NCBI RefSeq assembly: GCF_000022265.1
Contig: NC_011979.1
Coordinates: 1,380,001-1,412,000, forward strand
Source of the DNA: Geotalea daltonii FRC-32
GTDB lineage: Bacteria > Desulfobacterota > Desulfuromonadia > Geobacterales > Geobacteraceae
Length of the DNA stretch: 32,000 nt
Direction of reading: 5' to 3'
The notes beneath the pieces were generated by a model. That model was given only the letters and a program-made list of their open reading frames with translations. It searched no databases and was not told where the DNA came from. Within the stretch, counting starts at the first letter, position 1. Each line of letters starts with the position of its first letter. The translations under genes and the position numbers were made by a program. Shown here in pieces: positions 8,020 through 31,418 of the stretch.

Positions 8020-8043
8020 TGCTGAAAATCACCCTCCTCCTTG

Positions 8044-9374: not shown

Positions 9375-9385
9375 TGCGTTCACAC

Positions 9386-9417: not shown

Positions 9418-9439
9418 AAAGTCAAACACACAGAATCCT

Positions 9440-11332: not shown

Positions 11333-11344
11333 TGGTGAATTACT

Positions 11345-12349: not shown

Positions 12350-12377
12350 CCATTCAGATGTAAAAGGAGGAGATGCA

Positions 12378-12919: not shown

Positions 12920-12939
12920 AAAGACTGTTGAGGAGATTC

Positions 12940-13470: not shown

Positions 13471-13471
13471 T

Positions 13472-13548
13472 TTGTAGGGGCGGCCCCGCGTGGCCGCCCT
13501 CACTACCCATACAGAACACCAGGGCAACCACACGGGGTTGCTCCTACA
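13472..13548. repeat. Nested-hairpin element in the nuoI-nuoJ spacer
   Basis: Outer arms: TGTAGGGG (13472-13479) against CTCCTACA (13541-13548), one mismatch. Inner hairpin 1: GGGCGGCC (13478-13485) against GGCCGCCC (13492-13499). Inner hairpin 2: GCAACC (13524-13529) against GGTTGC (13536-13541). Confidence 0.55.
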
Positions 13549-13561
13549 GGATTGACTCACC

Positions 13562-14047
13562 ATGGAACAGGCACTCTTCTACATCCTGGCGGCGGTGACG
13601 GTCGTTGCCACCATTTTTGCCATTACCGAAAAGCATGCGGTGCATGCCATCGTCTACCTGGTTACCTCGTTCTTTGCCCTGGCGGTGATCTTCTTCCTGC
13701 TCAGTGCGCCGCTGGTGGCGGTTTTCGAGGTCATCATCTATGCCGGTGCCATCATGGTGCTGTTCATGTTCGTCATAATGATGTTGGACCTGAGCCACCC
13801 GGAAAAGATCGGCCTGCCGCGCTTTGCCCACTGGTGGCCGGCCATCCTTCTTGGGGGAATCATCCTGGCAGCTTTCATCACACTGGTTATGGCCCGTCAG
13901 CAGGCAGTGCCGGGGGAGGTGGCAGAAATCGGCATCCGCGACTTTAGCCGCACCCTTTTCCAGAAGTACGGCATTGCCGTGGAGATTATTTCCATGCAGC
14001 TCCTCTTTGCCCTGGTGGGTGCGCTATATCTCGGGAGGCGCAGGTGA
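13562..14047 (+). CDS. nuoJ: NADH-quinone oxidoreductase subunit J
   Basis: 161 aa, ND6-like hydrophobic protein at the conserved operon position (VIIYAGAIMVLFMFVIMM). Confidence 0.9.
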   Translation: MEQALFYILAAVTVVATIFAITEKHAVHAIVYLVTSFFALAVIFFLLSAPLVAVFEVIIYAGAIMVLFMFVIMMLDLSHPEKIGLPRFAHWWPAILLGGIILAAFITLVMARQQAVPGEVAEIGIRDFSRTLFQKYGIAVEIISMQLLFALVGALYLGRRR

Positions 14048-14056
14048 AAAAATATA

Positions 14057-14091
14057 GTTCGATGTTCGAAGTTTAAGGTTCGAGGTTAAAC
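14057..14091. repeat. Second heptanucleotide array (GTTCGAT GTTCGAA GTTTAAG GTTCGAG GTTAAAC)
   Basis: Five in-phase 7-bp units of the same GTTCGAN type as at 4558-4585. They fill the nuoJ-nuoK spacer. Confidence 0.75.
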
Positions 14092-14094
14092 GGA

Positions 14095-14403
14095 ATGATC
14101 GTGCCCCTGTTGCATATCCTGATTTTGGCTGGCATTCTCTTCGTCCTTGGCCTGGTCTGCACCATGGTCTGGCGAATGAATATCATCATGATGCTGATCG
14201 GCATCGAGATCATGCTCAATGCGGCCATGCTCGCCTTCGTCGGCGCTGCCAACCGCTGGGGGACAGCCGACGGTCAGGTCTTCTCCCTGATGATCATGGC
14301 CATGACCTCCGCCGAGGTGTCACTGGCCCTGGCGCTGGTGGTCTACCTGCACCGGTGGCGGAAAACCGTTAATGCGGATGACTTCAACAGCATGAAAGGC
14401 TGA
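14095..14403 (+). CDS. nuoK: NADH-quinone oxidoreductase subunit K
   Basis: 102 aa, 3-TM ND4L-like protein (GIEIMLNAA; AEVSLALALVV). Confidence 0.95.
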   Translation: MIVPLLHILILAGILFVLGLVCTMVWRMNIIMMLIGIEIMLNAAMLAFVGAANRWGTADGQVFSLMIMAMTSAEVSLALALVVYLHRWRKTVNADDFNSMKG

Positions 14404-14407
14404 CGAT

Positions 14408-16369: not shown

Positions 16370-17859
16370 TGGCCGAGCTGCCGTTGCTCTCCATACTGGT
16401 CTTCCTCCCCCTGGTCGGGGGGCTCTGTCTGCTGCCTTTCGGGCAGCAGCACCGGATAGCCAGGATCATCGCCATTGCCACGGCTCTGGCTGAACTGCTC
16501 ATCTGCGTCATGCTCCTTCTCTCCGTCGGATCGGTTACCAATGCCGTTCCCGGCTTAGCTTTGCTGCTGGTGGAGGACTACCCCTGGATCGATCGTCTCG
16601 GCATCCGCTATACCCTTGGCCTGGACGGCATCAGCCTTTTGATGGTGCTTCTGACCTCCCTTATCACTCTTATGGCCATGCTCGTTTCCTGGCGCAGCAT
16701 AAAGGATCGGGTGGCGCTGCACTATGCCACGATTCTCATCATGGAAACCGGCATCATGGGGGTCTTTCTCTCCCTGGACCTGGTTCTCTTCTACCTGTTC
16801 TGGGAGGTGATGCTGATTCCCATGTTCCTGCTCATCGGCATCTGGGGGCACGGGCGGCGCATCTATTCGGCGGTGAAGTTCTTCCTCTACACCCTTGCCG
16901 GATCGCTGCTCATGCTCCTGGCGATCATCGCCCTTTATCTCATCCACGGCGCCCAGAGCGGCAGCTATACCTTTGCCCTGCCGGCGCTGCTCCAGACCCG
17001 TATTGAGCCCACCACAGCCGGATGGCTCTTCGCCGCTTTCCTCCTGGCTTTCGCCATCAAGGTACCACTTTTCCCCGTCCATACCTGGCTTCCCGATGCT
17101 CATACCGACGCCCCCACCGCAGGCAGCGTAATCCTGGCGGGGCTGCTCCTGAAAACCGGCGCCTACGGACTGATCCGATTCGGTTTTCCGCTTTTTCCAC
17201 AGGCAGCGAAGGCAAGCGCAACGCTGCTTTTTACCCTGGCAATAATCGGCATCATTTACGGCTCGTGGGTCGCCTATGCCCAACGGGACATGAAGCGGCT
17301 GGTGGCCTATTCCAGCGTCGGCCACATGGGCTTCGTTGCTTTAGGGATCGCCGCGTGGACGCCCCTGGCCCTCTCCGGCGCAATCCTGCAGATGGTCAAC
17401 CACGGCATCACCACCGGGGCGCTCTTTGCCCTGGTTGGGATGCTGGACGAGCGGACCGGCACCAGGGAAATCGATGCTTACGGCGGATTATGGGGGAAAA
17501 TCCCCATGCTCTCCTTTTTCTTCCTTTTCTTTGCCATGGCTTCTGCAGGGCTCCCCGGCCTGAACAACTTCGCCGGGGAATTCATCATTCTTACGGGTAC
17601 TTTCCCCATAGCTCCGTGGGCCGTTGCCGTCGGCTTTTTCGGCGTAGTGCTCGGGCTCGTCTACCTGGTGCGCCTGGTGCAGGAGGTGCTCTTTGTCCGG
17701 GAGCGGCAGGCTCTGACCCTGCCTGACCTGTCCCTGCGCGAGGGCGCGCTTCTTACGGTGCTGGCGCTGATGGCGCTGTATCTGGGCGTCCATCCCGGCC
17801 CGGTACTGGAACTGGTACAGGCGCCGGTGCAGTTGTTGACCGTAGGGGGGGGGCCATGA
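16369..17859 (+). CDS. nuoM: NADH-quinone oxidoreductase subunit M
   Basis: ND4-family protein (FYLFWEVMLIPMFLLIGIWG; VHTWLPDAHTDAPTAGSV). ATG at 16369 overlaps the nuoL stop (TGATG). The track ORF starts at 16354. Confidence 0.93.
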   Translation: MAELPLLSILVFLPLVGGLCLLPFGQQHRIARIIAIATALAELLICVMLLLSVGSVTNAVPGLALLLVEDYPWIDRLGIRYTLGLDGISLLMVLLTSLITLMAMLVSWRSIKDRVALHYATILIMETGIMGVFLSLDLVLFYLFWEVMLIPMFLLIGIWGHGRRIYSAVKFFLYTLAGSLLMLLAIIALYLIHGAQSGSYTFALPALLQTRIEPTTAGWLFAAFLLAFAIKVPLFPVHTWLPDAHTDAPTAGSVILAGLLLKTGAYGLIRFGFPLFPQAAKASATLLFTLAIIGIIYGSWVAYAQRDMKRLVAYSSVGHMGFVALGIAAWTPLALSGAILQMVNHGITTGALFALVGMLDERTGTREIDAYGGLWGKIPMLSFFFLFFAMASAGLPGLNNFAGEFIILTGTFPIAPWAVAVGFFGVVLGLVYLVRLVQEVLFVRERQALTLPDLSLREGALLTVLALMALYLGVHPGPVLELVQAPVQLLTVGGGP

Positions 17860-19259
17860 CCACCTTCGACCTGTGGAGTGTCATGCCCCTGGCCATCCTG
17901 GCCTTAGGTGCCCTGCTCATCCTCATCATCGGTGCTGTCAGGCCTGGGGGCCATTGCACCGGCCTCGGCGTTGTCGCTACCCTCGGCGCCGCCGTCTGGA
18001 CCGTGGTCATGCCGCCGATACCCGCTTCACCAACACTGGGCATCGTCTTTGGCCCCTTTGCCCGCTTCTTCAGTACGCTATTCCTCCTGGCTGCCGCCGT
18101 GACCCTGCTCCTTTCCCACCAGTACAACAGGGAACGCCGCATCCAGGGTGAAGAATATCCGGCGACGGTGCTTTTTGCCGCCTTCGGCATGGTAACGGTC
18201 AGCGCCTCCACCAACCTCCTTACCCTGTTCCTCGGTGTCGAGGCCATGACTTTCGCCTTTTACATCCTCGTTGCCATGGACCTGAACAGTACCGGATCAG
18301 CGGAGGCGGGTCTCAAGTACCTCCTGCTCGGCGCCATTTCCGCTGCCTGCATCGCCTTCGGCATCGCTCTCCTCTATGCTGCGGCAGGGACCCTGGATAC
18401 GCGGGAGGTGGCCCGACTGACCCTTGGAGGAGGCTCCGATCCCCTTGCCCTTGCCGGTTGGGGACTGCTCCTCACCGGCATCGCCTTCAAGATTTCCCTG
18501 GTTCCGGCCCATCTCTGGACCCCCGACGTTTACCAGGGGGCGCCCACACCGGTCGTCGCCTTCCTTTCCACCGCCTCCAAAGGTGCGGCCATTGCTTTCC
18601 TCCTCCTGCTCCTCTTGGGGGGCGACGGATTTAAGGCCCTCCATGGGCCGCTCTGGTGGCTGTCGCTACTTTCCATGGTGGTTGGTAACCTGGCGGCGCT
18701 GCTGCAGTCCAACGTCAAGCGGATGCTGGCCTATTCTTCCATCGCCCAGATGGGCTACGTGGTGCTGGCGCTTTTGACCGGAACGGAGGATGGCTTTACG
18801 GCGGTCATCTTCTATGTGGTGGCCTACACGGCCATGAACTTGGCGGCATTCGGGGCTGTGGCAGTTCTTTGCCGGGGGGAGGCGGGGGAGGAGATCGGCG
18901 ATCTGCAGGGGATGGGTTACGGCAGGCCGTTTCCGGCGGCGGTGCTGGCCCTGGCCATGTTTGCCCTGGCCGGGATTCCTCCCACCGCGGGATTTATCGG
19001 CAAGTTTTTCATTTTCTACTCAGCCTTCAGGGGGGGCGAGATTCCCCTGGCCGTCATAGGCATTCTCACGGCCGCAACCTCGGCCTTCTACTACCTGCGG
19101 GTGGTGGTCAACCTCTACATGCACGCTGCAGTCTCGCCGGGCAACGGCAAGATCTCCGCCACCGAATCCCTCGCCCTTGCCGCTTCGGCGGCAGCCGTGT
19201 TCGCCATCGGCATCTATCCCCCTCCGCTACTCCAGGTAATCGGCAAACTCATCCCCTGA
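17856..19259 (+). CDS. nuoN: NADH-quinone oxidoreductase subunit N
   Basis: 467 aa, ND2-family protein (KISLVPAHLWTPDVYQGAPTPV; KRMLAYSSIAQMGY). ATGA overlap with nuoM. Confidence 0.93.
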   Translation: MTTFDLWSVMPLAILALGALLILIIGAVRPGGHCTGLGVVATLGAAVWTVVMPPIPASPTLGIVFGPFARFFSTLFLLAAAVTLLLSHQYNRERRIQGEEYPATVLFAAFGMVTVSASTNLLTLFLGVEAMTFAFYILVAMDLNSTGSAEAGLKYLLLGAISAACIAFGIALLYAAAGTLDTREVARLTLGGGSDPLALAGWGLLLTGIAFKISLVPAHLWTPDVYQGAPTPVVAFLSTASKGAAIAFLLLLLLGGDGFKALHGPLWWLSLLSMVVGNLAALLQSNVKRMLAYSSIAQMGYVVLALLTGTEDGFTAVIFYVVAYTAMNLAAFGAVAVLCRGEAGEEIGDLQGMGYGRPFPAAVLALAMFALAGIPPTAGFIGKFFIFYSAFRGGEIPLAVIGILTAATSAFYYLRVVVNLYMHAAVSPGNGKISATESLALAASAAAVFAIGIYPPPLLQVIGKLIP

Positions 19260-19422: not shown

Positions 19423-21420
19423 ATGTCAGGTGACTCAGTTTTGCTCTTGAGGATGTACAGAACAGCGCTTGCAATCGTCTTTGCGCTGCTTGTTTCTCTT
19501 GGCAGCGGATGCGGTGGGGCAGGAAAAACTCCCCAAGCCCACAGGGGGGTGCTCGATCTTTCCACCGTGCAATGGCCCATTTCAACCATCATACCCCTTG
19601 ATGGCCAATGGGAATTCTATTGGAAACAGCTGCTGTCTCCCGATGATTTCCATAGAGTCTCTCCCCCGGCACCCTCTGCCCATATCTCGCTACCCGACCC
19701 ATGGAACAACCTCTTCATCCAAGGGGAAAATATCGGCCCACGCGGCTATGCCACTTACCGCCTGGTGGTGGTCCTGCCGGGGAAAGGGGAACGGGAGCTT
19801 GCGCTCAAGCTTGCCGATATTTGTTCCGCCTACAGGCTTTGGGCAAACGGCAAGCTTATCGCCGAAGGGGGTAGGATAGGGAAGGACGCCGCCGGGGAAA
19901 TTCCGAACCAATCCTTTCGCCAGCCCCGCCTCCGCGTGACCGGAGATTACGTGGAGTTAGTCCTCCAGGTGTCCAATTATCATTACTACCAGGCAGGAGT
20001 CGTCAATCCCATCCAGATTGGCCCGGTGGAGAAGGTTGAGGCGGCCCGCTTCAGGCAGTTGGGGGGAGTCCTCTTCTGCGCCGGCAGTCTGTTGATCATG
20101 GGCATCTACCATATTGCCATCTTCGCCTTTCGCAGAAGGGATGCGGCTCCCCTTTACTTCGGCGTCTACTGTCTTTGCTGGGTGGGAAACATACTGACCT
20201 CCAATGCGAACGGCTGGGTTGCCGGTCTTTTCACCGGCGGTTTACCCGATGCATCCATTTACGTGATCGACACCCTCTGCTTCGTGATAACGGTCGCTGT
20301 TTGCTACAGTTTTCTACGGACGCTCTATCCCGAAGAATTCAACCGGTATATTTCCTATGGGGCATGGTGCCTGGCCCTGATCTACTTGGTAATGGGGTTT
20401 GTCCTCCCAGCCATTACCGTTTCCTCAGGCCTCCCCGCCTATTATATTTATTCCATTCTGTTGATCGCATACAGCCTGTTCAGGCTCGGCGCTGCATTGG
20501 GGAACGACCGGGAGGGGGCCTTCTTCATTTTCATCGGCATCATGGTTCTCGGCGGGGCCGGTATCAACGACATGCTGCTCGACATGGGCGCGATTCACTC
20601 CGTGTACCTGGGACACATGGGGCTGTTCGTGTTGATCCTGTTCCAGGCGATGGCCCTGTCGCTGAGGTTTTCCCGTGCATTTTCGTGGGTGGAACAGTTG
20701 TCCGACGAACTGGCGGAGAAGAACCTGACCCTGGAAGAAGGGCTTGCGGAGAGAAACCGCCTGGAGCGGAAGATCATCCAGATCAGCGAGGATGAGCGCC
20801 GCAGCCTGAGCCACCACCTGCACGACGGTCTGTGTCAGCAACTTACCGGCGCCAGGCTGCTTTTTTCGGTATTGGGTAAGAATTTAGCCGGAGCCAAGGG
20901 TGTGAAGCCCGATATGCAGCGACTCTCGTCTCTTTTGGAAGAGTCGGTCAACCAGGCCTACGACCTTTCCCGCGGGCTCTGGCCGGTGGAGCACGATCCC
21001 CACGGTGTCAGTCCTTCCCTTGAAGAGCTGGTCCGGCGCCTGGGCGAGTCCAACGGCATCGACATTCAGTTCCGCCAGGAAAGGGGGTGTGCAAAATGCA
21101 CCAATACCGATGTCACCCAAATGTACCGGATAGCTCAGGAAGCGGTTACCAATGCGGTCAAGCATGCCCGGGCGCAAAAAATCACGGTCACCCTCGACTG
21201 CGCCGATCGCACCACGATTTCACTGGCGGTGGAGGACAATGGTATCGGCAGAGCTAAAGCATCCATGGGCAAGAGTGGGCTCGGTATGGGAATAATGTCT
21301 TATAGGGCGGGCATTATTGGCGGCAACCTGACTGTCACGGATGCCGTAGGGGGAGGGACACTGGTTTCCTGCACTGCGGTATGCGAACAACATGCGGAGG
21401 TGATTTCCAATGGGTTTTAG
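19423..21420 (+). CDS. Sensor histidine kinase: 7TMR-DISM type extracellular domain, 7 TM segments, HisKA_3 and HATPase (NarL-partner class)
   Basis: 665 aa. N-terminal signal peptide with LGSGC lipobox-like site. About 190-aa periplasmic domain (DGQWEFYW...). Seven hydrophobic helices between residues 210 and 415. Coiled coil. H-box SHHLHDGLCQQL. N and G boxes: EAVTNAVKHA, DNGIG, GLGMGIMSYRAGIIGG. Confidence 0.9.
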   Translation: MSGDSVLLLRMYRTALAIVFALLVSLGSGCGGAGKTPQAHRGVLDLSTVQWPISTIIPLDGQWEFYWKQLLSPDDFHRVSPPAPSAHISLPDPWNNLFIQGENIGPRGYATYRLVVVLPGKGERELALKLADICSAYRLWANGKLIAEGGRIGKDAAGEIPNQSFRQPRLRVTGDYVELVLQVSNYHYYQAGVVNPIQIGPVEKVEAARFRQLGGVLFCAGSLLIMGIYHIAIFAFRRRDAAPLYFGVYCLCWVGNILTSNANGWVAGLFTGGLPDASIYVIDTLCFVITVAVCYSFLRTLYPEEFNRYISYGAWCLALIYLVMGFVLPAITVSSGLPAYYIYSILLIAYSLFRLGAALGNDREGAFFIFIGIMVLGGAGINDMLLDMGAIHSVYLGHMGLFVLILFQAMALSLRFSRAFSWVEQLSDELAEKNLTLEEGLAERNRLERKIIQISEDERRSLSHHLHDGLCQQLTGARLLFSVLGKNLAGAKGVKPDMQRLSSLLEESVNQAYDLSRGLWPVEHDPHGVSPSLEELVRRLGESNGIDIQFRQERGCAKCTNTDVTQMYRIAQEAVTNAVKHARAQKITVTLDCADRTTISLAVEDNGIGRAKASMGKSGLGMGIMSYRAGIIGGNLTVTDAVGGGTLVSCTAVCEQHAEVISNGF

Positions 21421-22048
21421 AAAAAAAGCAGCCAGCATCTTCCTGATCGACGACCATCCCGCAGTAAGACAGGGATTGAAGCTGCTTCTTTCCCAGGAAG
21501 GCCACTCCATTAGTGGAGAAGCCGGTTCCCATGCCGAGGTGGCTTCCCTTCTGGCTTCCTCCCATGCCGATGTGGCGCTTCTGGATCTGTCCCTAAGCGA
21601 AGAAAGCGGCCTGGGTCTGATTAGCGGAATACGAAATGCCGGTATTGCAGTTCTTGTCTATTCCATGCATGAAGATCCGGATAGCATCGAGAAAGCCTTT
21701 ACCGCCGGGGCCGACGGCTACGTCACCAAGCGGGAAATGGCCGAAGCGCTCCTGACCGCAGTATCGGACCTTGTGGCCGGTAAGCGGCATATCAGCCCCA
21801 GGGCGGCCCAGAGCCTGGCGAGCAGGGCCGTAGATCACCCCGAGCAGGGCCGGGAGAGGCTTCTCAGTGATCGCGAAAAAGAAGTATTGGTAAAACTTGC
21901 CCTGGGAGAAACAAATGGGGACATAGCCGCATTCTTCGGCATCAGTGTCCGCACGGTGGAGTCATATTTTTCGCGCATTATAGCCAAGCTCGGCCTTGCG
22001 GGAATGAAGGAGCTGAGACGCCATGCCATAACCAGAAACCACCGGTAG
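21410..22048 (+). CDS. Response regulator, receiver plus LuxR/NarL-type HTH
   Basis: 212 aa. Receiver (IFLIDDHPAVRQGL, DVALLDLSL, GADGYVTK) and HTH (LSDREKEVLVKLALGETNGDIAAFFGISVRTVESYFSRI). Overlaps the kinase gene by 11 nt. Confidence 0.9.
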   Translation: MGFRKKAASIFLIDDHPAVRQGLKLLLSQEGHSISGEAGSHAEVASLLASSHADVALLDLSLSEESGLGLISGIRNAGIAVLVYSMHEDPDSIEKAFTAGADGYVTKREMAEALLTAVSDLVAGKRHISPRAAQSLASRAVDHPEQGRERLLSDREKEVLVKLALGETNGDIAAFFGISVRTVESYFSRIIAKLGLAGMKELRRHAITRNHR

Positions 22049-22152: not shown

Positions 22153-22158
22153 TATAAT
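22153..22158 (+). promoter_or_regulatory. Perfect TATAAT -10 hexamer (possible promoter of the GNAT / tail-collar cassette)
   Basis: TATAAT at 22153-22158. Only a poor -35 (CATACA with an 18-nt spacer). Confidence 0.3.
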
Positions 22159-22336: not shown

Positions 22337-22843
22337 ATGATTAAGGACGGTCAGATAGCCCTTCGATCCATAGGCGAAGGAGACCTGGAATTCCTCCTCC
22401 TGCTCTACGCATCGACCCGGGAGCCGGAGAAGGCGATGGTGGCCTGGCCGGACGAGCAGTGGGACCAGTTCATGCGGATGCAGTTCTCCCTGCAGCATGC
22501 CCAGTACATGAAGAACTACGAAAATCCCAGCTTTGACGTCATCCTGGTGAACGGCGTTCCGGCGGGGCGACTCTACGTCAATCGCAAAGCGGACGACTGC
22601 CGGTTGATCGACATCGCCCTCTTGCCGGAGTTCCATGGGCGGGGCATTGCCGGGTCGCTCATCGGGTTGTTGCTGCAAGAAGCCGATGAAAACGGTACCT
22701 CGGTCAGCCTGCACGTGGAAAAGAACAACCCGGTCCGCGACTATTATCTGCGGCTCGGGTTCAATGTCGCAGAAGACAAGGGGGTCTACGACTTCATGGT
22801 CCGCCCCGTTGGGGGCAAGGACCGTCGGTCGGGGGCAGTTTGA
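22337..22843 (+). CDS. GNAT-family N-acetyltransferase
   Basis: 168 aa. Acetyl-CoA motif A LLPEFHGRGIAGSLIGLLL, followed by VSLHVEKNNPVRDYYLRLGF. Confidence 0.85.
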   Translation: MIKDGQIALRSIGEGDLEFLLLLYASTREPEKAMVAWPDEQWDQFMRMQFSLQHAQYMKNYENPSFDVILVNGVPAGRLYVNRKADDCRLIDIALLPEFHGRGIAGSLIGLLLQEADENGTSVSLHVEKNNPVRDYYLRLGFNVAEDKGVYDFMVRPVGGKDRRSGAV

Positions 22844-22874
22844 ATCGGCAGTTGGAAGGGAGCAGGAGGAGCCT

Positions 22875-23171
22875 ATGACAAAACTGAAAAAAGAGGATTT
22901 CGAACCCCATCTGGCAACTGTTTTCCAGGTTTTGCCGTCCGGCATGGAGCCGGTTCCAGTGGAACTGGTCCAGGTGGAGGATAAAAGTTCGGCAGCCCTG
23001 GAAGTATTCTCCCTGATGTTCAAGGGGAGCACGGACAATGTCTTTCACCATGACACTCACCGGGTGCGCCATGGGGTCATGGGGGAACTGGAAATTTTCC
23101 TGGGGCCGGTGCACACCGGCAAGTTGGATGCTGTCTACTACCAGGCGATCTTCAGTTCGCCACGGGGGTGA
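22875..23171 (+). CDS. 98-aa conserved-looking hypothetical protein
   Basis: ATG at 22875 with AGGAGGA 4 nt upstream. No signal peptide, TM segment or motif I can name. Same strand and tightly packed with its neighbours. Confidence 0.65.
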   Translation: MTKLKKEDFEPHLATVFQVLPSGMEPVPVELVQVEDKSSAALEVFSLMFKGSTDNVFHHDTHRVRHGVMGELEIFLGPVHTGKLDAVYYQAIFSSPRG

Positions 23172-23186
23172 TTGCCGCAACGGCAG

Positions 23187-23235
23187 GATGTGATGCACCA
23201 GATGTGATGCAGGTCGCGGGAGAAGATATATCTTC
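23187..23235. promoter_or_regulatory. Direct repeat pair plus a perfect 14-bp palindrome upstream of the first tail-collar gene
   Basis: GATGTGATGCA at 23187-23197 and again at 23201-23211 (14-bp period). GAAGATATATCTTC at 23222-23235. Confidence 0.4.
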
Positions 23236-23255
23236 CAAAAAGAAGGAGGAAAAGG

Positions 23256-23777
23256 ATGAGTGATCAGTTTATCGGAGAAATCAGGATGTTCGGGGGGAAC
23301 TTTGCCCCTGTGGACTGGGCACTGTGCGACGGCAGCACGTTGCAGATCAGCCAGTACGACGTGCTCTATGCAGTGATCGGCACGTACTTCGGCGGGGATG
23401 GGATCACTAACTTCAAGCTCCCCGATTTCAGGGGGCGAATCCCGGTGCACATGGGAACGGGGCAGGGGTTGACGCCGAGGGGGATCGGCAATGCTTTCGG
23501 CACCGAGCAGGAGACGCTGCAGGTTGCCCACATCCCGGCCCATAACCATGTCGTCAGCGTCGGCGCCAACGCAACCACTGCCGCTCCGGCCGGTAACTAT
23601 CTGGGGAACAGCTCCAATTTCAGCCTGTATTCAACTGCTGCCGCGGACTCCCTCTTAAATCAAGACACAGTGGGGTTTTTCCCGGCCGCTCCTGCCCAGC
23701 CCCACTCCAATATGATGCCCAGTCTGTGCGTGAATTTCATTATTGCCACCAACGGGTACTATCCCCAGAGACCTTAG
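23256..23777 (+). CDS. Phage-tail-collar-domain protein, paralogue 1
   Basis: 173 aa. FIGEIRMFGGNFAPVDWALCDG, LPDFRGR, PAHNH, HSNMMPSLCVNFIIATNGYYPQR. RBS AAGGAGGA. Confidence 0.88.
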   Translation: MSDQFIGEIRMFGGNFAPVDWALCDGSTLQISQYDVLYAVIGTYFGGDGITNFKLPDFRGRIPVHMGTGQGLTPRGIGNAFGTEQETLQVAHIPAHNHVVSVGANATTAAPAGNYLGNSSNFSLYSTAAADSLLNQDTVGFFPAAPAQPHSNMMPSLCVNFIIATNGYYPQRP

Positions 23778-23794
23778 GACAAAAGGAGAATTTC

Positions 23795-24319
23795 ATGGCA
23801 GAACCATTTCTCGGCGAAATCCGGCTGTTCGGCTTCAACTTCGCCCCCGTCGGGTGGGCGACCTGTGATGGTCAAATAATGCAGATCACTCAAAACCAGG
23901 CGCTGTACGCCCTGCTCGGCACGACCTACGGCGGCAACGGCACCACAACCTTCAACCTCCCCGACTTTCAGGGCCGGACCCTGCTGCACGCCAACGCCAC
24001 CTATGGCGAAGGGAAAGCCGGCGGCGTAGAGACGGTCGCCCTGGCGACAACCTCGGAGCTGCCGGTCCATAACCATGTGTTGGCAGCCAATACAGGTCCC
24101 GGCGGGTCCAACGTACCCCAAGGAAATATTCTGGCGGCGACGCAGAGCCCTGACAATACCAAAACAGCCTACGCAACGGCAAAGGCGACGCCGGTGGCCA
24201 ATCTGGCGGGAGGCACGCTCTCTCCGGCCGGTGGTTCTGCCGGCCACAACAACGTGCAGCCGTCGCTGACAGTTAACTTCTGCATCGCCCTGACGGGGCT
24301 CTGGCCCCCTAGAAACTGA
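23795..24319 (+). CDS. Phage-tail-collar-domain protein, paralogue 2
   Basis: 174 aa from the ATG at 23795 (RBS AAGGAG 23783-23788). FLGEIRLFGFNFAPVGWATCDGQ, LPDFQGR, PVHNH, HNNVQPSLTVNFCIALTGLWPPR. Confidence 0.88.
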   Translation: MAEPFLGEIRLFGFNFAPVGWATCDGQIMQITQNQALYALLGTTYGGNGTTTFNLPDFQGRTLLHANATYGEGKAGGVETVALATTSELPVHNHVLAANTGPGGSNVPQGNILAATQSPDNTKTAYATAKATPVANLAGGTLSPAGGSAGHNNVQPSLTVNFCIALTGLWPPRN

Positions 24320-24337
24320 CCACAAGGAGAGAATTAT

Positions 24338-24892
24338 ATGGCAGATCCATTTATCGGAGAAATCCGTGCCTTTGCCTTTACCTATGCCCCCTATGGCTGG
24401 GCCACCTGCGACGGACAGATCATGAACGTTCAGCAGAATACGGCACTGTTTTCCATAATCAGTAACACCTATGGCGGTGATGGCAGAACCACCTTCGGCC
24501 TGCCGAACCTGTCCGGACGGGCACCCATGGGCTTCGGCACCGGGCCGGCGCTGACCCCCCAGACTTTGGGCCAGTCACTGGGCGAAGCCTCGGTATCGCT
24601 GGCAACCAACAACTTTCCCCCCCATACCCACGGTTTCAATGCGGTGTCCAATACCACTGCTACACTGGCGACAGCAGCCGACAGCTATGTGGCAAAGGCG
24701 CCGTCATCGGGAAAGCCTCCTGTCACCACCAACTCATTCCAGCCGTCGGCCTCCGCAGGGACCCAGTTGGCGGCAGATGCCGTCCTACTGGCAGGAACTG
24801 CGCCCGGAACAATGCCGCACAAGAACATGCAGCCCTACCTGCCGGTTCTGCTCTGTATCGCCCTTAGCGGCATATACCCGGCCAGACCTTAA
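24338..24892 (+). CDS. Phage-tail-collar-domain protein, paralogue 3
   Basis: 184 aa. FIGEIRAFAFTYAPYGWATCDGQ, LPNLSGR, PPHTH, HKNMQPYLPVLLCIALSGIYPAR. RBS AAGGAGAG. Confidence 0.88.
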   Translation: MADPFIGEIRAFAFTYAPYGWATCDGQIMNVQQNTALFSIISNTYGGDGRTTFGLPNLSGRAPMGFGTGPALTPQTLGQSLGEASVSLATNNFPPHTHGFNAVSNTTATLATAADSYVAKAPSSGKPPVTTNSFQPSASAGTQLAADAVLLAGTAPGTMPHKNMQPYLPVLLCIALSGIYPARP

Positions 24893-24904: not shown

Positions 24905-24943
24905 GTAACCGGAGAGAGAACGGCACGTTCTCTCTCCGGTTAC
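24905..24943 (+). terminator. Perfect 18-bp stem hairpin after the tail-collar genes (no U tract)
   Basis: GTAACCGGAGAGAGAACG (24905-24922), loop GCA, CGTTCTCTCTCCGGTTAC (24926-24943). Begins 13 nt after the stop. Confidence 0.45.
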
Positions 24944-25091: not shown

Positions 25092-28000
25092 ATGTTGAAG
25101 CGATCATTTGTCACTCTAATGGTCATTATGTTTGCAGCTTTTTGGTGCGGTCATGCAGACGCAGGCATCATCGGCACAGGCAACGGCACCTATGACTTCA
25201 GCAACGGCAATTCGGGCGCCAACGGAGGCATTGGCACAGACAACACCGCGGGAGCCGGGTTTGCCACCTTTTCCGACAAATTCGTCCTCAGTAACGGTAT
25301 GTTGATCGACGACCTGGTGCTGACCTCCATCTGGGCCGGCAATCAGCAAACTGCCTTCACTACCGGGTCGTTTACCGTAAAAGCGGAAGGGGGATCGACC
25401 TGCAAGACCTTCACCTTCAAGGACCTGGCGATTCACGACTATGACGGCTCCACCAATTTGGAGTCCATCACCGTCACGACCAAGCGGGCTGACGGTTCGA
25501 CCATCGCCACCCATGCCTCGGGTGTTCTCAGTTTCAACTCCACCACTCCCACACAACTGAGCACGCTTATAAACGGCGGCACTCAGTTCAATGACGCTTA
25601 TGTCGATTCGATTGTCATAAACTGGACCTTTCAAGGGGGAGCAGCCCCTTCGAACCTTAATTTCGACAACATTACCATAGCCGATGTGGCAGCACCGCCA
25701 GCGCCGACCGTAACCGGCATCGCTCCCACCTCCGGGCCAACCGCCGGAAACACCAGCGTCACTATCACCGGCACCGGTTTCGTGAACGGCGCGACAGTGA
25801 CCATAGGCGGCGCAAGCGCCACCGGGGTAACCTGGAACAGCGCCACCTCGATTTCGGCGACAACTCCGTCAGGTACTGCCGGAGCAAAAAATGTGGTAGT
25901 CACCAATCCCGATACGCAGAGCGGGACTCTGAGCGGCGGCTTTACCTATGTGGCCAACACCGCCCCGACCTTCGTCGGTGGCGTTACTACCCTGACAGTG
26001 AACCAGAACGCTTCCGCCACCGACATCAAGGGGCTGCTGCATGTCAGCGACACCGATCCCAGTCAGACCCTTACCTGGAGCCAGAGCGCTGCCCCGAGCC
26101 ATGGCACGCTCAGTGTTTCCAGTGCCACGGCCTCTTCAGGTTCCACCGACATCACCCCGGGTGGCGCCATTACCTACCAGCCCACCGGCGGCTACAGCGG
26201 CAGCGACAGTTTCACCGTCCAGGTCAGCGACGGCAATGGAGGAACGGCTACCCGCACGATCACGGTGACGATAAATCCTTTCTACACCGTCACATACAAC
26301 GGCAACGGCAGCACCGGCGGGACAGTCCCTGTTGACGGGAGCAGCCCCTACGTGACGGGCAGCACCGTCACCGTGATCGGTAACACCGGCTCGCTGGTTA
26401 AAGCGGGCTTCACCTTTGCCGGTTGGAACACGATGGCCAACGGCAGCGGTACCACCTATGCCGCGGGAACTCCCTTCACCATAAGCGGCAACACCACCCT
26501 TTACGCCAAATGGATCGGCACCGTCACCTACAACGGTAACGGCAATAACGGCGGCACAGTACCCACCGATGCCACCCTCTACCTGCCGGGAGACCTCGTC
26601 ACCGCTGCCGCCAACAGCGGCAGCCTGACCAGGGCCGGCTACACCTTCGCCGGCTGGAACACCCTGGCCGACGGGACCGGCACAACCTATACCGCGGGCA
26701 GCGGCACTTTTGCCATGGCTGGGCATATCACCCTGTACGCCAAGTGGACCGCTGCCGTCACCTATAATGGCAACGGTAACACCGGCGGCACAGCTCCCAC
26801 CGACGCCACAGCCTATCTGAGCGGGACCACGGTAACTGTTCTCGGCAATACCGGAACACTGGTGAGAACCGGTTATACCTTTGCCGGCTGGAACACCTTG
26901 GCCAACGGCACCGGTACCAGCTACGCCGCCGCAGATACCTTCTCCATCGCCGGCAACACCACCCTCTACGCCAAGTGGACCGCCACCGTCACCTACAACG
27001 GCAACGGTAACACCGGCGGCGTTGCACCGACAGACGCAAGCAGCTCCTATGTGGCAGGGGCTACGGCAACCGTTCTCGGCAACACAGGAACGCTGACCAG
27101 GACCGGCTACACATTTAATGGATGGAATAGTGCTGCCAATGGCAGCGGAACAGACTATTCTCCCGGCGCTACCTTTGCCATATCCGGCAATCTTACCCTT
27201 TACGCCAAATGGACCGGAACGGTCACTTACAACGGTAACGGCAACACCGGCGGTACAGTTCCCACCGATGCCACCGGTTACCTGCCGGGAGACACCGTCA
27301 CCGCCGCCGCCAACAGCGGTACATTGGTGAAGACAGGCTACACATTCAGCGGCTGGAACACTCTGGCCGATGGCACCGGCACTACCTATGCCGAAGGCAG
27401 CACCTTCAACATGGCAGGGCACATCACCCTTTACGCCAAATGGACCGCTGCTGTCACCTACAACGGTAACGGCAACACCGGCGGAGCTGCTCCCACCGAC
27501 GCCACAGCCTATCTGAGCGGGGCCACGGTTACTGTTCTTGGCAATACGGGAACACTGGTGAGAACAGGCTACACCTTCAGTGGATGGAACACCCTTGCCA
27601 ATGGCACCGGCACCAGCTACGCCGCCGCAGATACCTTCTCCATCACCGGCAACACCACCCTCTATGCCAAGTGGACCGCCACCGTCACCTACAACGGCAA
27701 CGGTAACACTGGTGGAGCCGTGCCAACCGACGGTAGCAACCCCTATGTGGCCGGAGCCACTGTGACCGTCCTCGGTAATACTGGATCACTGGTGAGAACC
27801 AATTATTCATTTGTCGGCTGGAATACCCTGGCAAACGGCAGCGGCACCCCCTACGCCCCAGGCGCAACCTTTACAATGACCGGCGACATCACCCTTTATG
27901 CGCAGTGGTTGGGAATCCCTGTTGCTACGGCAGCCTCTTCAGTTAACTTCTCCGGCTTCACCGCCAACTGGGGTGCTGTTGCAGGCGCATCCGGCTACTA

Positions 28001-31000
28001 TCTCGACGTGGCTACCGACATCGGTTTCACCACCTTTGTCACCGGCTTCAACAATCTTGATGTGGGGAATGCCACGACCAAAGCAGTCACCGCTCTTTCG
28101 TCCGGCACCCCCTACTGGTACCGCGTCCGGGCCTACAGCGCCAGCGGCACCAGCGCCGATTCCAACACAATCAACCCCACAACCGCCACCACCCGCACCG
28201 TTATCAACACCAACGACAGCGGAGCAGGATCGCTCCGCCAGGCCATCATTGACGCCAACCCGGGCGACCAGATCACCTTTGACGCAAGCCTGAATGGCCA
28301 GACAATCACCCTTGCTTCAGCTCTGACTATCGGCAAGGATCTGACCATCAGCGGACCCGGTGCAAAGAACCTTACCATCAGCGGTAACAATGCTACCCGG
28401 ATATTCACAGTAAACGGGGGAAATTTGACCCTGCAGGACCTGACCATTGCCAACGGCAGCGCTGGTGATGGTGGTGCGATGCATAACACAGCTACCACAA
28501 CCATCGAAAGATGCGTCTTCAGCGGAAACCTGGCAACCAACGCCGGCGGCGCGGTAATTGCGTACGGCACTATGACAATTAAGGACAGCTCGTTCACGGG
28601 CAACAGCGCCCTGAATTACGGGGGTGCCATTTATAGTGACTGTAACTTTTCAATGACCAACGTCACCATAAACAACAACAGCGCGGGCATAGATGGCGGC
28701 GGAATATATTTTATGAACGACCCGGCTGCCATCTCTAATACCACTATTGCAGGGAATAGTGCCTCGATCAATGGGGGAGGGATAGCTAATAACGGGGGAG
28801 CAGTCAGCCTGAAAAACAGCATCGTCGCCAACAACAGTGCCCCGTCCGGTCCGGATATTTACGGTAGTCCTGTCACTTCCCAGGGATACAACCTGATCGG
28901 GAACACCTCAGGCGCATCAATCGCTGGAGACACCACAGGCAATATTACCAATCAAAACCCGTTCCTCGGCCCCTTGGCCGACAACGGCGGACCGACCCAG
29001 ACGATGATGCTGCTCAACGGCTCCCCGGCCATTGACGCCGGTAACTGCAGCAGCGGTCCTGCCGCGGACCAGCGCGGCATGGCCAGACCCCAGGAAGGCA
29101 CTTGCGACATCGGTGCCTACGAGCGGGGCATCCCGGCAGCCGTGACGGCAACCGGCGGCACGTCACAGTCGACAACCATAAACACGGCCTTTAGCACTCC
29201 ATTTTCTGCCAAAGTCGCAGATTCTCTCGGCTTCCCCCTCGATGGCATAACAGTCACCTTTGCCGGTCCGGGGAGCGGTGCCGGTATAACCGCTGGGGGT
29301 AACGCGGCTACTAATGCCTCCGGCATCGCCTCCTTCAGCGCCTCGGCCAACGGCAATGCCGGCAGCTACTCTGTAACGGCCACCATCGGAAGCCTGACTG
29401 CCGGCTATACCCTCACCAATACGAAGGCGAACCAAACCATCACCTTTAACCCGCCAGCCAGCGCCACTTATGGGAATAGTCCCATTACCCTTACCGCCAT
29501 CGGCGGCGCCTCCGGTAGTCCGATCACCTTTGCCGTCACTAGCGGGCCGGGGAGCCTCACCGGCAATGCCCTGACCATCACCGGCGCAGGCAGCATCGTT
29601 GTCACTGCTTCCCAGGCGGGAAACTCCAATTACAGTGCTGCGGCGGATGTGCCCAGGACCATTGTCGTCGGCAAGGCAACGGCCACTGTCAACCTTTCTG
29701 GATTGAGCCAGACGTACGATGGTACGGGCAAATTAGCTTCCGTCACTACCACACCCGCGGGGCTGACGGTGAATGTTACCTATGACGGCAGTGCCACGGC
29801 ACCCAGCAATGCCGGCAGCTATGCAATCATTGCCACCATCAACGACGCCAACTACCAGGGGAGCACCAGTGGCACCCTTACCATCGGCAAGGCGGCGCAA
29901 TCGGTCACCTTCGGCACCGCCCCGGCCATTGCCTATGGCGGAACAGGTATCGTCAGTGCTACCGCCAGTTCCGGATTGACACTTAGCTTAAGCTCCACAA
30001 CGCCAACGGTTTGCACCGTCAGTGGTGCCACCGTCAGCGGCCTGGCCGCCGGCACCTGTACCATAGCCGCCGATCAGGCAGGTAACGGCAACTTCAATGC
30101 CGCAACCCAGGCCACCCAGAGCATCACCATCGGCAAGGCCAGCCAGACCATCACCTTCGGCACGGCCCCGACGGTTTTTGTCGGCACTACCGGTACTGTC
30201 AGCGCCACCGCCTCCTCTGGGTTTGCCGTAAGCTTCACCTCCACAACGCCCCTTGTCTGCACCATCAGCGGCACCGCCGTTACCGGCATATTCCCCGGCA
30301 CCTGCACCATTGCCGCCAACCAGAGCGGTAACGGCAACTATAACGCCGCAACCCAGGCGACCCAGAGTATGACAGTGACCGTTCCCTTGAGCCTGTTGCT
30401 TTCGACCCTCAGTGACGGTGCCGTCACCACCGAAACCACGGTTAATGTCTGCGGTCTGGTCAGCAACCCGACTTTCCTCAGTTCCGTGACCATCAATGGG
30501 GTCGCCATTCAGGTCAGTTCTTTCGGCCTGTTCAGCTATCCCGTGCAACTCGTGGCCGGGGCCAATACCATCACCGTCATCGCCACCAGCACCTCCGGCA
30601 ATGTCATTACCGATACCCGCACCATAATCCTCGATACTATGGCGCCTCGCCTGACCGTTACCTCTCCGCCGGACAACACGGTGGTGATCCGGCAGTTCGT
30701 CACCGTCACCGGTACCATTGTCGATTTGTTTGCCGGAAATGCAAAAATGGCCGCCGCGGATTCCGCAGGTATGACTGTCAGCTATACCGTCAACGGCTCA
30801 TCCCCCCAGGCGGCCAGCCTGACCGATACGACGTACACCTTCACCGCCCCACTGAATGAGGGGATGAACACCATCCTTATAACAGCCGTAAGCCAGACAG
30901 GAAAGACAGCGCAGGCCAAGCGGACGGCCAGTTATGTGCCTGCCTTCTCCCTGGCCGTTACCGATCCGTCCGGCGATATCCGCACGGTGCGTGATTCCTA

Positions 31001-31418
31001 TCCCCTTGCGGGAACAGTGGCGGACAATACAACTCCGGTAACTGTCACCATAAATATGGATGGCCAGACGTATACCCCGGCGGTGGTTGAGGGAGTATTC
31101 CGGCAGTTGCTGTCGTTGACCGATACCAAGGTGTACCAGGTGAGCGTTACCGGCACCGATCAGAACAGCAATACGTTGACGGTGCAGCGCAATATCATCC
31201 GCACCCTGCCGGTGGCGGTCGACGGAACGACGGAAGGTTTAAGTATTGTCGATGCGCTGCTTGCCCTGCAGATGGCGGTAGGGCTGAAAAATCAGCAACC
31301 GGACCAGGTTCTGAGGCTGGACATGGCGCCGATGGTCAACGGCGTTTCCACGGGGGACGGCGTCGTGGATATCGAGGATGCCCTGGTCATCCTGCGCCTG
31401 GTGGTGGGGCTAATCTGA
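25092..31418 (+). CDS. Giant secreted mosaic surface protein (2108 aa): signal peptide, unknown N-domain, IPT/TIG, cadherin-like Ig, 7 Listeria-Bacteroides (InlB B-repeat type) units, FN3, right-handed beta-helix, several Ig-like/MBG-like domains, dockerin-like C-terminus
   Basis: The ATG at 25092 (RBS AAAGGAGA) gives MLKRSFVTLMVIMFAAFWCGHADA. IPT: PTVTGIAPTSGPTAGNTSVTITGTGF. Repeat units: VTYNGNGNTGG...GYTFAGWNT...TLYAKW. FN3: SGYYLDVATD...YWYRVRAY. Beta-helix with GGAI-type turns, ending LADNGGPTQT..GSPAIDAG..DQRG..RP..CDIGAYE. Confidence 0.9.
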   Translation: MLKRSFVTLMVIMFAAFWCGHADAGIIGTGNGTYDFSNGNSGANGGIGTDNTAGAGFATFSDKFVLSNGMLIDDLVLTSIWAGNQQTAFTTGSFTVKAEGGSTCKTFTFKDLAIHDYDGSTNLESITVTTKRADGSTIATHASGVLSFNSTTPTQLSTLINGGTQFNDAYVDSIVINWTFQGGAAPSNLNFDNITIADVAAPPAPTVTGIAPTSGPTAGNTSVTITGTGFVNGATVTIGGASATGVTWNSATSISATTPSGTAGAKNVVVTNPDTQSGTLSGGFTYVANTAPTFVGGVTTLTVNQNASATDIKGLLHVSDTDPSQTLTWSQSAAPSHGTLSVSSATASSGSTDITPGGAITYQPTGGYSGSDSFTVQVSDGNGGTATRTITVTINPFYTVTYNGNGSTGGTVPVDGSSPYVTGSTVTVIGNTGSLVKAGFTFAGWNTMANGSGTTYAAGTPFTISGNTTLYAKWIGTVTYNGNGNNGGTVPTDATLYLPGDLVTAAANSGSLTRAGYTFAGWNTLADGTGTTYTAGSGTFAMAGHITLYAKWTAAVTYNGNGNTGGTAPTDATAYLSGTTVTVLGNTGTLVRTGYTFAGWNTLANGTGTSYAAADTFSIAGNTTLYAKWTATVTYNGNGNTGGVAPTDASSSYVAGATATVLGNTGTLTRTGYTFNGWNSAANGSGTDYSPGATFAISGNLTLYAKWTGTVTYNGNGNTGGTVPTDATGYLPGDTVTAAANSGTLVKTGYTFSGWNTLADGTGTTYAEGSTFNMAGHITLYAKWTAAVTYNGNGNTGGAAPTDATAYLSGATVTVLGNTGTLVRTGYTFSGWNTLANGTGTSYAAADTFSITGNTTLYAKWTATVTYNGNGNTGGAVPTDGSNPYVAGATVTVLGNTGSLVRTNYSFVGWNTLANGSGTPYAPGATFTMTGDITLYAQWLGIPVATAASSVNFSGFTANWGAVAGASGYYLDVATDIGFTTFVTGFNNLDVGNATTKAVTALSSGTPYWYRVRAYSASGTSADSNTINPTTATTRTVINTNDSGAGSLRQAIIDANPGDQITFDASLNGQTITLASALTIGKDLTISGPGAKNLTISGNNATRIFTVNGGNLTLQDLTIANGSAGDGGAMHNTATTTIERCVFSGNLATNAGGAVIAYGTMTIKDSSFTGNSALNYGGAIYSDCNFSMTNVTINNNSAGIDGGGIYFMNDPAAISNTTIAGNSASINGGGIANNGGAVSLKNSIVANNSAPSGPDIYGSPVTSQGYNLIGNTSGASIAGDTTGNITNQNPFLGPLADNGGPTQTMMLLNGSPAIDAGNCSSGPAADQRGMARPQEGTCDIGAYERGIPAAVTATGGTSQSTTINTAFSTPFSAKVADSLGFPLDGITVTFAGPGSGAGITAGGNAATNASGIASFSASANGNAGSYSVTATIGSLTAGYTLTNTKANQTITFNPPASATYGNSPITLTAIGGASGSPITFAVTSGPGSLTGNALTITGAGSIVVTASQAGNSNYSAAADVPRTIVVGKATATVNLSGLSQTYDGTGKLASVTTTPAGLTVNVTYDGSATAPSNAGSYAIIATINDANYQGSTSGTLTIGKAAQSVTFGTAPAIAYGGTGIVSATASSGLTLSLSSTTPTVCTVSGATVSGLAAGTCTIAADQAGNGNFNAATQATQSITIGKASQTITFGTAPTVFVGTTGTVSATASSGFAVSFTSTTPLVCTISGTAVTGIFPGTCTIAANQSGNGNYNAATQATQSMTVTVPLSLLLSTLSDGAVTTETTVNVCGLVSNPTFLSSVTINGVAIQVSSFGLFSYPVQLVAGANTITVIATSTSGNVITDTRTIILDTMAPRLTVTSPPDNTVVIRQFVTVTGTIVDLFAGNAKMAAADSAGMTVSYTVNGSSPQAASLTDTTYTFTAPLNEGMNTILITAVSQTGKTAQAKRTASYVPAFSLAVTDPSGDIRTVRDSYPLAGTVADNTTPVTVTINMDGQTYTPAVVEGVFRQLLSLTDTKVYQVSVTGTDQNSNTLTVQRNIIRTLPVAVDGTTEGLSIVDALLALQMAVGLKNQQPDQVLRLDMAPMVNGVSTGDGVVDIEDALVILRLVVGLI
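26278..27917 (+). repeat. Seven tandem coding repeats of 231-243 bp; units 2-4 and 5-7 form a 699-bp higher-order duplication
   Basis: Unit starts at 26278, 26520, 26754, 26985, 27219, 27450 and 27681. At protein level unit 2 resembles 5, unit 3 resembles 6, and unit 4 resembles 7. Confidence 0.85.

Follow-up and report, generated by a model that had tools for sequence, protein, structure and literature searches.

Are bacterial genes that are annotated as parts of phage tails remains of phages, or do they belong to a system of the cell itself? This question is raised by five neighbouring genes in a stretch of 32,000 nucleotides (nt) from Geotalea daltonii FRC-32 (RefSeq assembly GCF_000022265.1, contig NC_011979.1, positions 1,380,001 to 1,412,000), which was analysed at its full length and is referred to as the window. 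A reading of the letters alone, without database searches (the sequence-only reading), had pointed out a same-strand cassette for a GNAT acetyltransferase, a protein of 98 amino acids (aa) and three tail-collar-domain proteins, and had considered it a candidate for an undescribed system. The proteins are 100% identical to Geob_1278-1282 of this strain, and the proposed genes agree exactly with the open reading frames (ORFs) in position and spacing:

22337..22843, plus strand: GNAT acetyltransferase Geob_1278, 168 aa, first gene of the cassette (PF00583)
22875..23171, plus strand: DUF6916 protein Geob_1279, 98 aa, a small beta protein (PF21880)
23256..23777, plus strand: collar type 1 (Col1) Geob_1280, 173 aa, a predicted free-standing gp12-like receptor-binding domain (PF07484)
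23795..24319, plus strand: collar type 2 (Col2) Geob_1281, 174 aa (PF07484, type-2 clade)
24338..24892, plus strand: collar type 3 (Col3) Geob_1282, 184 aa (PF07484, type-3 clade)

None of the five ORFs is disrupted, and they lie close together, with intergenic gaps of 31, 84, 17 and 18 nt. A ribosome-binding site of the AGGAG type had been proposed for every gene; a clear AGGAG or AAGGAG was found for four of the five, whereas the GNAT gene has GGGGGA only. The cassette is best explained as a cellular, non-phage and widely conserved module derived from a domesticated fibre tip, in which the three collars would form a heterotrimer, GNAT and DUF6916 would take care of its maturation or escort, and the complex would bind to a surface. 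This explanation, which draws on comparative sequence data and on analogy to related proteins, is held with roughly even confidence.

DUF6916 was chosen as the anchor for a comparison of genomes and metagenomes because it is free of bias towards collar genes. Redundancy was removed, and the loci had to extend by at least 3 kb to either side; 26 of them made up the set. Each of the 26 encodes a GNAT of the same subfamily together with collars, and the number of collars is exactly three in 23. In a reverse search, a collar protein was compared with plasmids and chromids, and the matched records mostly contained it in exactly three places. Seven of these collar-anchored loci were inspected: all of them encoded three collars and the GNAT subfamily, five also encoded DUF6916 and a giant protein lay alongside in six. 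The gene order was conserved, with positional orthology across phyla. Thus, the two outcomes that the sequence-only reading had asked for in a neighbourhood analysis, namely, co-occurrence of GNAT and the 98-aa family with collar triplets and a conserved order of the triplet, were both obtained. Chance is no explanation for an arrangement that was seen again in dozens of unrelated genomes, and the linkage of GNAT, DUF6916 and collars is firmly established.

Among the carriers of the cassette are Geobacterales (Geobacteraceae) and alpha- and beta-proteobacteria; it was seen in Sulfuricellaceae, Comamonas, Azospirillum, Rhizobium, Aminobacter, Pontibrevibacter, Acidobacteriota, candidate phyla, Treponema, Paenibacillus and Deinococcus. 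The distribution is patchy; the cassette is horizontally transferred and is often located on plasmids and chromids. In the cultured isolate Geotalea uraniireducens, the cassette is complete and precedes the gene for a protein of more than 2670 aa. In Acaryochloris marina, AM1_3686 is annotated as acetyltransferase, AM1_3687 as hypothetical protein and AM1_3688-3690 as tail collar proteins. These five genes are co-regulated and among the strongest-induced ones in low far-red light, and AM1_0271 and AM1_6406, which are annotated as phage tail sheath and baseplate, are induced together with them (PMC11633204).

Some loci are arranged differently. In Treponema sp. UBA1793 (7974-13066 of the locus L012), DUF6916 and GNAT are encoded on one strand and the collars on the other. 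Only two collars were found there, which are longer (215 and 243 aa) and followed by an 886-aa cadherin-like/fn3/LamG protein, and the stoichiometry may be different in this organism. On a plasmid of Azospirillum oryzae (L020, 664-5731 and 9237-11909), the three collars precede GNAT and DUF6916, and the flanks contain a lasso-peptide set (PqqD, B2 protein and an asparagine synthetase-like cyclase), a cupin and 2-oxoglutarate (2OG)-Fe(II) oxygenases. Sulfotransferases, Asp/Arg hydroxylase, 2OG oxygenases and PqqD are recurrent near the cassette in other lineages and make up a protein-modification theme.

The assignment of the last three genes to the Collar family was borne out by PF07484, which matched Geob_1280, Geob_1281 and Geob_1282 with E-values of 3e-27, 3e-28 and 1e-25 (94.9, 98.2 and 89.6 bits, respectively, at a cut-off of 24). 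The Collar domain begins at residue 7 in each protein (residues 7-63 in Geob_1280) and therefore leaves no room for a signal peptide, as had been noted before; no N-terminal shaft or attachment region precedes the tip either. The three paralogues share 39-43% identity overall. The shared blocks described earlier are clearly recognisable, with 42-52% identity in the N-terminal and 52-56% in the C-terminal block. Their central segments, rich in Ala, Thr, Gly, Ser, Pro and Asn, had been called unrelated; with 19-22% identity they are strongly diverged, but not literally unrelated. The same segments are 39-44% conserved across phyla among orthologues of the same type.

Exactly one HxH motif was found in each of 50 collar proteins, among them Geob_1280 (residues 96-98), Geob_1281 and Geob_1282, and the motif was invariant in an alignment of 32 sequences. 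A profile of these 32 collars matched the cyanophage A-1(L) fibre (8kec, E = 7e-9) and T4 gp12 (E = 1e-6) in the PDB, and the HxH of the collars aligned with LPSHQH of the A-1(L) fibre. In the trimers of T4 gp12 and gp37, a Zn or Fe ion on the axis is coordinated by the HxH histidines that the three chains contribute. The AlphaFold2 monomer of Col1 had a predicted local distance difference test score (pLDDT) of approx. 90 in the collar part and of 54-76 in the centre, which is expected because such a chain would be interwoven in a trimer. Phage fibre tips were its only Foldseek neighbours, namely, 1ocy (E = 1.7e-4, 196 columns), 8kec and 2xgf. The model thus shows Col1 to be a whole gp12-type receptor-binding domain without shaft, with moderate confidence in the centre. 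Col2 and Col3 align with Col1 over their full length.

The three collars are not simply copies of each other. In a tree of 50 collars, three clades followed the gene position across 12 diverse loci, and identity was 55-60% within a position versus 40-44% between positions. Seven alignment columns were fixed within a type and different between types, e.g. LPD/LPD/LPN and NxMP/NxQP/NxQP for types 1, 2 and 3. Type-specific hidden Markov models were then applied to 34 independent triplets outside the training set. The order 1-2-3 was obtained in 13 and 2-1-3 in eight of them, so that 21 out of 34 contained one of each type. For another eight, the models gave 2-2-3 by narrow score margins; the few others were for the most part ambiguous. 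Type 3 was nearly always found in last place. On these data, the three collars are ancient and non-interchangeable paralogues. Since the tips are conserved within a type and not between types, each type would contribute its own constrained tip segment.

This is the pattern that an obligate hetero-oligomer would predict, although it is no proof. The sequence-only reading had suggested an obligate 1:1:1 heterotrimer, which is supported indirectly by the three ancient types with their signature residues and by a homologous complex of a virophage. DSLV2 encodes three consecutive collar proteins of ∼19 kDa that likewise form positional clades across relatives and co-purify 1:1:1 as a 58-kDa complex; this trio forms 16-nm fibres and binds the lipopolysaccharide (LPS) of Synechococcus (PMC12724248, 2025). 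By analogy, the DSLV2 trio provides the strongest outside support for a bacterial counterpart, and a 1:1:1 collar heterotrimer in bacteria appears well motivated.

Geob_1279 was identified as a member of DUF6916 (PF21880) with an E-value of 8e-22 and 77.6 bits (cut-off 27) over residues 4-93 of 98. Its AlphaFold2 model (pLDDT 94) consists of one helix and six strands. A Foldseek search with this model against PDB and BFVD gave nothing significant (best E-values 0.55 and 0.06, TM-score <0.5); the weak top matches, none of them significant, were phage neck and tail proteins. The family is large, with 7577 representative clusters at 50% identity in an exhaustive profile search. NCBIfam holds no name for any of the collar or DUF6916 proteins of the cassette, and no paper naming DUF6916 was found in a literature search.

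Geob_1278 belongs to the GNAT family (PF00583, E = 9e-11). It reached only 25 bits against the RimI equivalog model with its cut-off of 86.4, and an identity as RimI is therefore excluded. Its nearest solved relatives are 7wx5, deposited as N-acetyltransferase (E = 9e-8), and 6wqb/6wqc, deposited as N-terminal acetyltransferase of the GNAT family (E = 5e-6). The GNAT subfamily adjoins DUF6916 in all 26 loci. GNAT-DUF6916 pairs are often duplicated in soil metagenome loci, and a natural GNAT::DUF6916 fusion with a Lys/Ala-rich tail (P0121; L027, 2311-3207) is directly followed by a type-1 collar gene on its 3' side. GNAT and DUF6916 apparently act together, because they are always adjacent, duplicated as pairs and in one case fused. 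A Pyrinomonadaceae contig (L024, 4408-9478) contains two such pairs and no collar gene within its limits; a sulfotransferase, an Asp/Arg hydroxylase, a phosphoribosyltransferase and a PqqD-like protein are encoded nearby.

The N-termini of the collars are all Met-Ser, Met-Ala or Met-Asp, located four to five residues ahead of the invariant GEIR. As a general rule from other systems, such N-termini are typical substrates of N-terminal acetylation. Due to these acetylatable ends and the N-acetyltransferase-like relatives of Geob_1278, it is proposed that GNAT might acetylate the collar N-termini, with DUF6916 as an adaptor.

A part of the DUF6916 family appears to be exported by the twin-arginine translocation (Tat) pathway. 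About one sixth of the best matches from the exhaustive search had an N-terminal extension of 40-50 residues, and most of the inspected extensions contained a canonical SRRxFLK twin-arginine signal and a hydrophobic region. When an alignment of five Tat-DUF6916 sequences was used as query for a metagenome scan, more than 600 stretches were matched, 414 of which were confirmed as DUF6916 relatives. A Tat signal was present in 39 of the 118 DUF6916 ORFs in the metagenome loci. The typical order in loci of this type is GNAT-DUF6916-GNAT-DUF6916(Tat)-Col-Col-Col. Such an expanded cassette was seen in L033, L043, L052, L067, L078, L085, L107 and other soil metagenome loci, where the second DUF6916 (Tat) often lies on the opposite strand. 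Geob_1279 has no twin-arginine signal (it starts with MTKLKKEDFEPH), and no second DUF6916 copy was found in the window.

The Tat pathway exports folded, cofactor-bearing proteins and can also carry partners that lack a signal of their own. In the lineages that have it, the Tat-bearing paralogue suggests an extracytoplasmic destination and possibly a co-export of the folded, signal-less trimer. Co-export is considered because the collars never have a signal peptide, yet a collar homologue is present in the exoproteome of Ruegeria pomeroyi (PMC4949626).

In the window, the cassette is followed by a very large gene:

25092..31418, plus strand: giant secreted surface protein, 2108 aa from its probable start, with an AAGGAG site and a signal-peptide-like N-terminus

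The sequence-only reading had linked this giant adhesin to the cassette. Indeed, 11 of 13 independent loci of the window type encode a large protein behind the third collar on the same strand, at a distance of 17-240 nt. The smallest of these neighbours has 348 aa and the largest more than 2600 aa, and the inspected N-termini were signal-peptide-like. Giant Ig-like, YDG-domain or beta-helix proteins were also encoded beside the trio in collar-anchored loci of Paenibacillus, Rhizobium, Aminobacter, Pontibrevibacter, Comamonas and Deinococcus. The 2108-aa protein contains TIG, Big_9/cadherin-like and fn3-like domains, seven Listeria-Bacteroides repeats, MBG, Glucodextran_B and a choice-of-anchor Q beta-helix module. 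By eye, dockerin-type repeats can be suspected in the C-terminal ∼70 residues (GDGVVDIEDALVILRLVVGL); no profile confirmed them. Among the giant neighbours the domains are variable (TIG, cadherin/Big, fn3, FG-GAP, choice-of-anchor Q beta-helix, choice-of-anchor Z repeats and, in one of them, a type IX secretion system sorting domain). A docking domain common to all of them was not found; choice-of-anchor Q occurred in five and TIG in others. Loci of the Tat type usually have other neighbours, such as methyltransferases or a kinase. In L018 (860-8294), a membrane-fusion gene of a type I secretion system and a 1469-aa Big/cadherin protein are encoded convergently with the cassette, in addition to a 910-aa TPR-sulfotransferase and a second DUF6916 copy. 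The adhesin linkage of the cassette is thus supported, and the giant protein is a probable functional partner; the link is statistical and functional and not demonstrably physical.

The genomic surroundings of the cassette contain two further features:

19423..22048, plus strand: 7TMR-DISM histidine kinase and LuxR/GerE-type response regulator (Pfam)
24905..24943, plus strand: perfect 18-bp stem-loop without U tract (inverted repeat, 100% complementary)

On the 5' side, nuo genes are followed by the two-component system, while the 2108-aa adhesin lies on the 3' side. The nuo run (12000-19259 of the window) comprises a Fer4 subunit, Oxidored_q3, q2 and three Proton_antipo_M subunits, and gives the cassette a core chromosomal context as it lies directly upstream. 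The genes for the 7TMR-DISM kinase and the LuxR/GerE regulator overlap by 11 nt. The two-component system had been suggested to be linked to the cassette. It was rejected as a part of it because no homologue was found beside the cassette in any other locus examined.

The stem-loop, which separates Geob_1282 from the gene for the adhesin, has a 3-nt loop and a predicted RNA folding energy of -34.8 kcal/mol (z = -7.1). It is not called by a simple terminator scan, since the U tract is missing, and is a possible terminator, attenuator or RNA stabiliser. Apart from this, nothing convincing was obtained in a promoter and terminator scan of the plus strand; a TATAAT at 22153-22158 lacks a good -35 element and is mentioned only as a possibility. 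No riboswitch or other RNA family was found with Rfam in the 288-nt leader or the whole window, at neither gathering nor permissive thresholds. A search for tRNA genes in the window was negative as well.

The relation of the cassette to phages was examined in neighbourhoods and in viral collections. Sheath, tube, baseplate, capsid, integrase and lysis genes were absent from the neighbourhoods annotated by Pfam or in the records, both in the window and in the other genomes; housekeeping and surface genes were found instead. DUF6916 was not found in IMG/VR by pattern scanning with two different profiles, nor by tblastn in the 50,697 phage genomes of INPHARED. The earlier statement that no prophage surrounds the cassette agrees with both results. 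The phage relatives of the collars have at most 35% identity, are usually single-copy per genome and are embedded in larger tail proteins. None of the five cassette proteins was matched by a family of PADLOC-DB 2.0, and a reading as known defence system was dropped for this reason. In public annotation, the collar genes are termed 'tail fiber protein' or 'phage tail protein'. Earlier papers mention the trio briefly and label it as phage-derived, in Caulobacter K31 and in Pseudomonas, there accompanied by an acetyltransferase and a sulfotransferase (PMC4221894, PMC2745422).

In the favoured explanation, one copy of each paralogue would assemble into a metal-clamped heterotrimer of ∼55 kDa, the tip of which would bind a surface glycan or another surface ligand. 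This tip would be asymmetric, because each type brings its own conserved Ala/Thr/Gly/Ser-rich segment. GNAT and DUF6916 would mature or escort the trimer; more specifically, GNAT might acetylate the Ser/Ala (or Met-Asp) N-termini that would converge at the trimer base, with DUF6916 acting as adaptor. In Geotalea-type loci, the module and the giant choice-of-anchor protein would most likely serve cell-surface adhesion or recognition. A more far-reaching version appears improbable. It regards the cassette as a hitherto unrecognised, very widespread class of bacterial surface recognition, in which a phage-derived heterotrimeric lectin folded in the cytoplasm, metal-clamped with 1:1:1 stoichiometry and acetylated by GNAT would be carried by DUF6916 and form the ligand-specific tip of an adhesin. 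Export would take place by Tat hitchhiking in lineages of the Tat type, and DUF6916 would hand the trimer over to the giant choice-of-anchor adhesin in those of the Geotalea type.

Several points weigh against the favoured explanation. About one third of the distant triplets are not cleanly composed of one collar per type, with low score margins there, and gp12 and gp37 are homotrimers. No cassette protein of the window has a signal peptide, so that the complex might be cytoplasmic. The idea of N-terminal acetylation is a guess from weak similarity and conserved N-termini. As to the giant neighbour, no domain is universal, and L005, L013 and most loci of the Tat type lack such a protein, which leaves a physical partnership hypothetical; in the window, the strong hairpin separates its gene from the cassette. 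Sulfotransferases, hydroxylases and methyltransferases near the cassette in other lineages may indicate that another logic applies.

Three independent homotrimers with three binding specificities, i.e. a small repertoire instead of one complex, would be in line with the solved relatives gp12 and gp37, with the moderate stability of one of three DSLV2 homotrimers in simulation (PMC12724248) and with some distant triplets that apparently have two genes of one type. A repertoire would be expected to vary, whereas the count is fixed at three in 23 of 26 loci, the same three types occur across phyla in two fixed orders and the tips are conserved within a type and not hypervariable. As the homologous virophage trio moreover co-purifies as heterotrimer (PMC12724248), independent homotrimers are considered unlikely. 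Somewhat less probable still is that the trio belongs, as fibre or tip, to a particle whose genes lie elsewhere in the genome (for example, a contractile injection system, a tailocin or a gene transfer agent), with DUF6916 as adaptor. This idea is kept alive by the co-induction of the A. marina cassette with annotated tail sheath and baseplate genes (PMC11633204), and the exclusively phage-fibre-tip fold of Col1 and the weak, non-significant matches of DUF6916 to phage neck and tail proteins would fit. It is difficult to reconcile with annotated neighbourhoods that lack sheath, tube and baseplate genes, with collars that lack an N-terminal attachment or shaft region and with the negative searches for DUF6916 in IMG/VR and INPHARED; the recurrent partners are GNAT and surface adhesins and not particle genes.

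A role in antagonism or defence is given a similarly low probability. Here, the collars would be a lectin-like bacteriocin or a decoy of phage receptors, and GNAT and DUF6916 would be immunity or neutralising factors. Cytoplasmic and Tat-exported DUF6916 paralogues and duplicated GNATs in one locus do resemble immunity matched to cytoplasm and periplasm, the cassette is patchy, horizontally transferred and often borne on plasmids or chromids, and a signal of positive selection was reported for collar paralogues of Solibacter (PMC3174227). Nevertheless, no component matched a PADLOC model, toxin or lysis domains are absent, the tips are conserved among orthologues instead of diversifying, and the cassette resides in a housekeeping chromosomal context and not in defence islands. 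The label as tail fiber or phage tail protein in public annotation and the treatment of such trios as phage regions in earlier genome papers (PMC4221894, PMC2745422) would finally suggest a decaying prophage remnant without current function. This deserves hardly any credence, as it is effectively refuted by conservation: five families are kept in the same order across phyla under type-specific constraint. In addition, the five ORFs are intact and tightly spaced, flanking phage genes, integrase and tRNA are absent, and the cassette is co-regulated in A. marina (PMC11633204).

A domesticated fibre-tip module of the cell can be compared with several known systems. With T4 gp12 (1OCY), gp37 (2XGF) and the A-1(L) fibre (8KEC), it shares the Collar domain PF07484 and the HxH motif, and the model of the whole 173-aa Col1 aligns with the 198-aa construct of gp12. 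The phage proteins are homotrimers and form the C-terminal ends of long fibres attached to the baseplate, at ∼23% identity to the collars. In the cassette, by contrast, the domain stands alone, in three fixed paralogues and together with GNAT and DUF6916 in a cellular context. Another parallel is DSLV2 with its three consecutive same-strand Collar genes for ∼19-kDa proteins (QIG59353-55) in positional clades. The heterotrimer was demonstrated for DSLV2, whereas it is predicted for the cassette. The virophage trio also differs in its virion context, indicated by capsid genes, and in the use of cyanobacterial LPS for attachment of the virus, and neither GNAT nor DUF6916 was reported for it (PMC12724248). 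Adjacent capsid genes that would indicate a virion were not found for the cassette, which lies on a cellular chromosome.

Free-standing bacterial Collar proteins without phage context are known from RhiB of Rhizobium leguminosarum (rhiABC) and MrpB of Microcystis aeruginosa, which belong to COG4675 ('microcystin-dependent protein'). RhiB is linked to plant interaction, and changes in MrpB expression accompany those of the extracellular cell-contact glycoprotein MrpC. Compared by their descriptions, rhiABC and mrpAB differ from the cassette in having a single collar gene with RhiA or MrpA and regulation by quorum sensing or light, and GNAT and DUF6916 were not reported. Export of signal-less partners by Tat hitchhiking is known from the hydrogenase HybOC and the DMSO reductase DmsAB. 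Many related loci resemble these pairs in that a small partner with Tat signal is encoded beside signal-less and probably metal-containing oligomeric proteins, whereas DUF6916 of the window has no signal. The sequence relatives that come closest to the cassette GNAT are N-terminal acetyltransferases (RimI; 6WQB/6WQC); its score stays far below the cut-off for RimI (25 vs 86 bits).

The designation as an undescribed system has to be narrowed in view of the RhiB/MrpB family, the trios noted in Caulobacter, Pseudomonas and Acaryochloris and the virophage counterpart of 2025. A literature search gave no relevant publication on the locus tags Geob_1278-1283 or on a tail collar of Geobacter. New in this work are the adjacency of the giant protein, the GNAT::DUF6916 fusion, the Tat signals on many DUF6916 paralogues beside trios and the lack of a conserved link to the two-component system.

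Genes for a 'tail fiber protein' or 'microcystin-dependent protein' are found in a great number of bacterial genomes, where they are routinely written off as debris of phages. The cassette defined here is a conserved cellular unit across many phyla that is consistently mis-annotated. It provides a first functional context for DUF6916 and a testable explanation for the old puzzle of RhiB and MrpB, and suggests that bacteria may reuse receptor-binding tips of phages for their own surface biology. G. daltonii and G. uraniireducens are cultured and attachment to minerals or electrodes is central there, so that the hypothesis is directly testable in these organisms.

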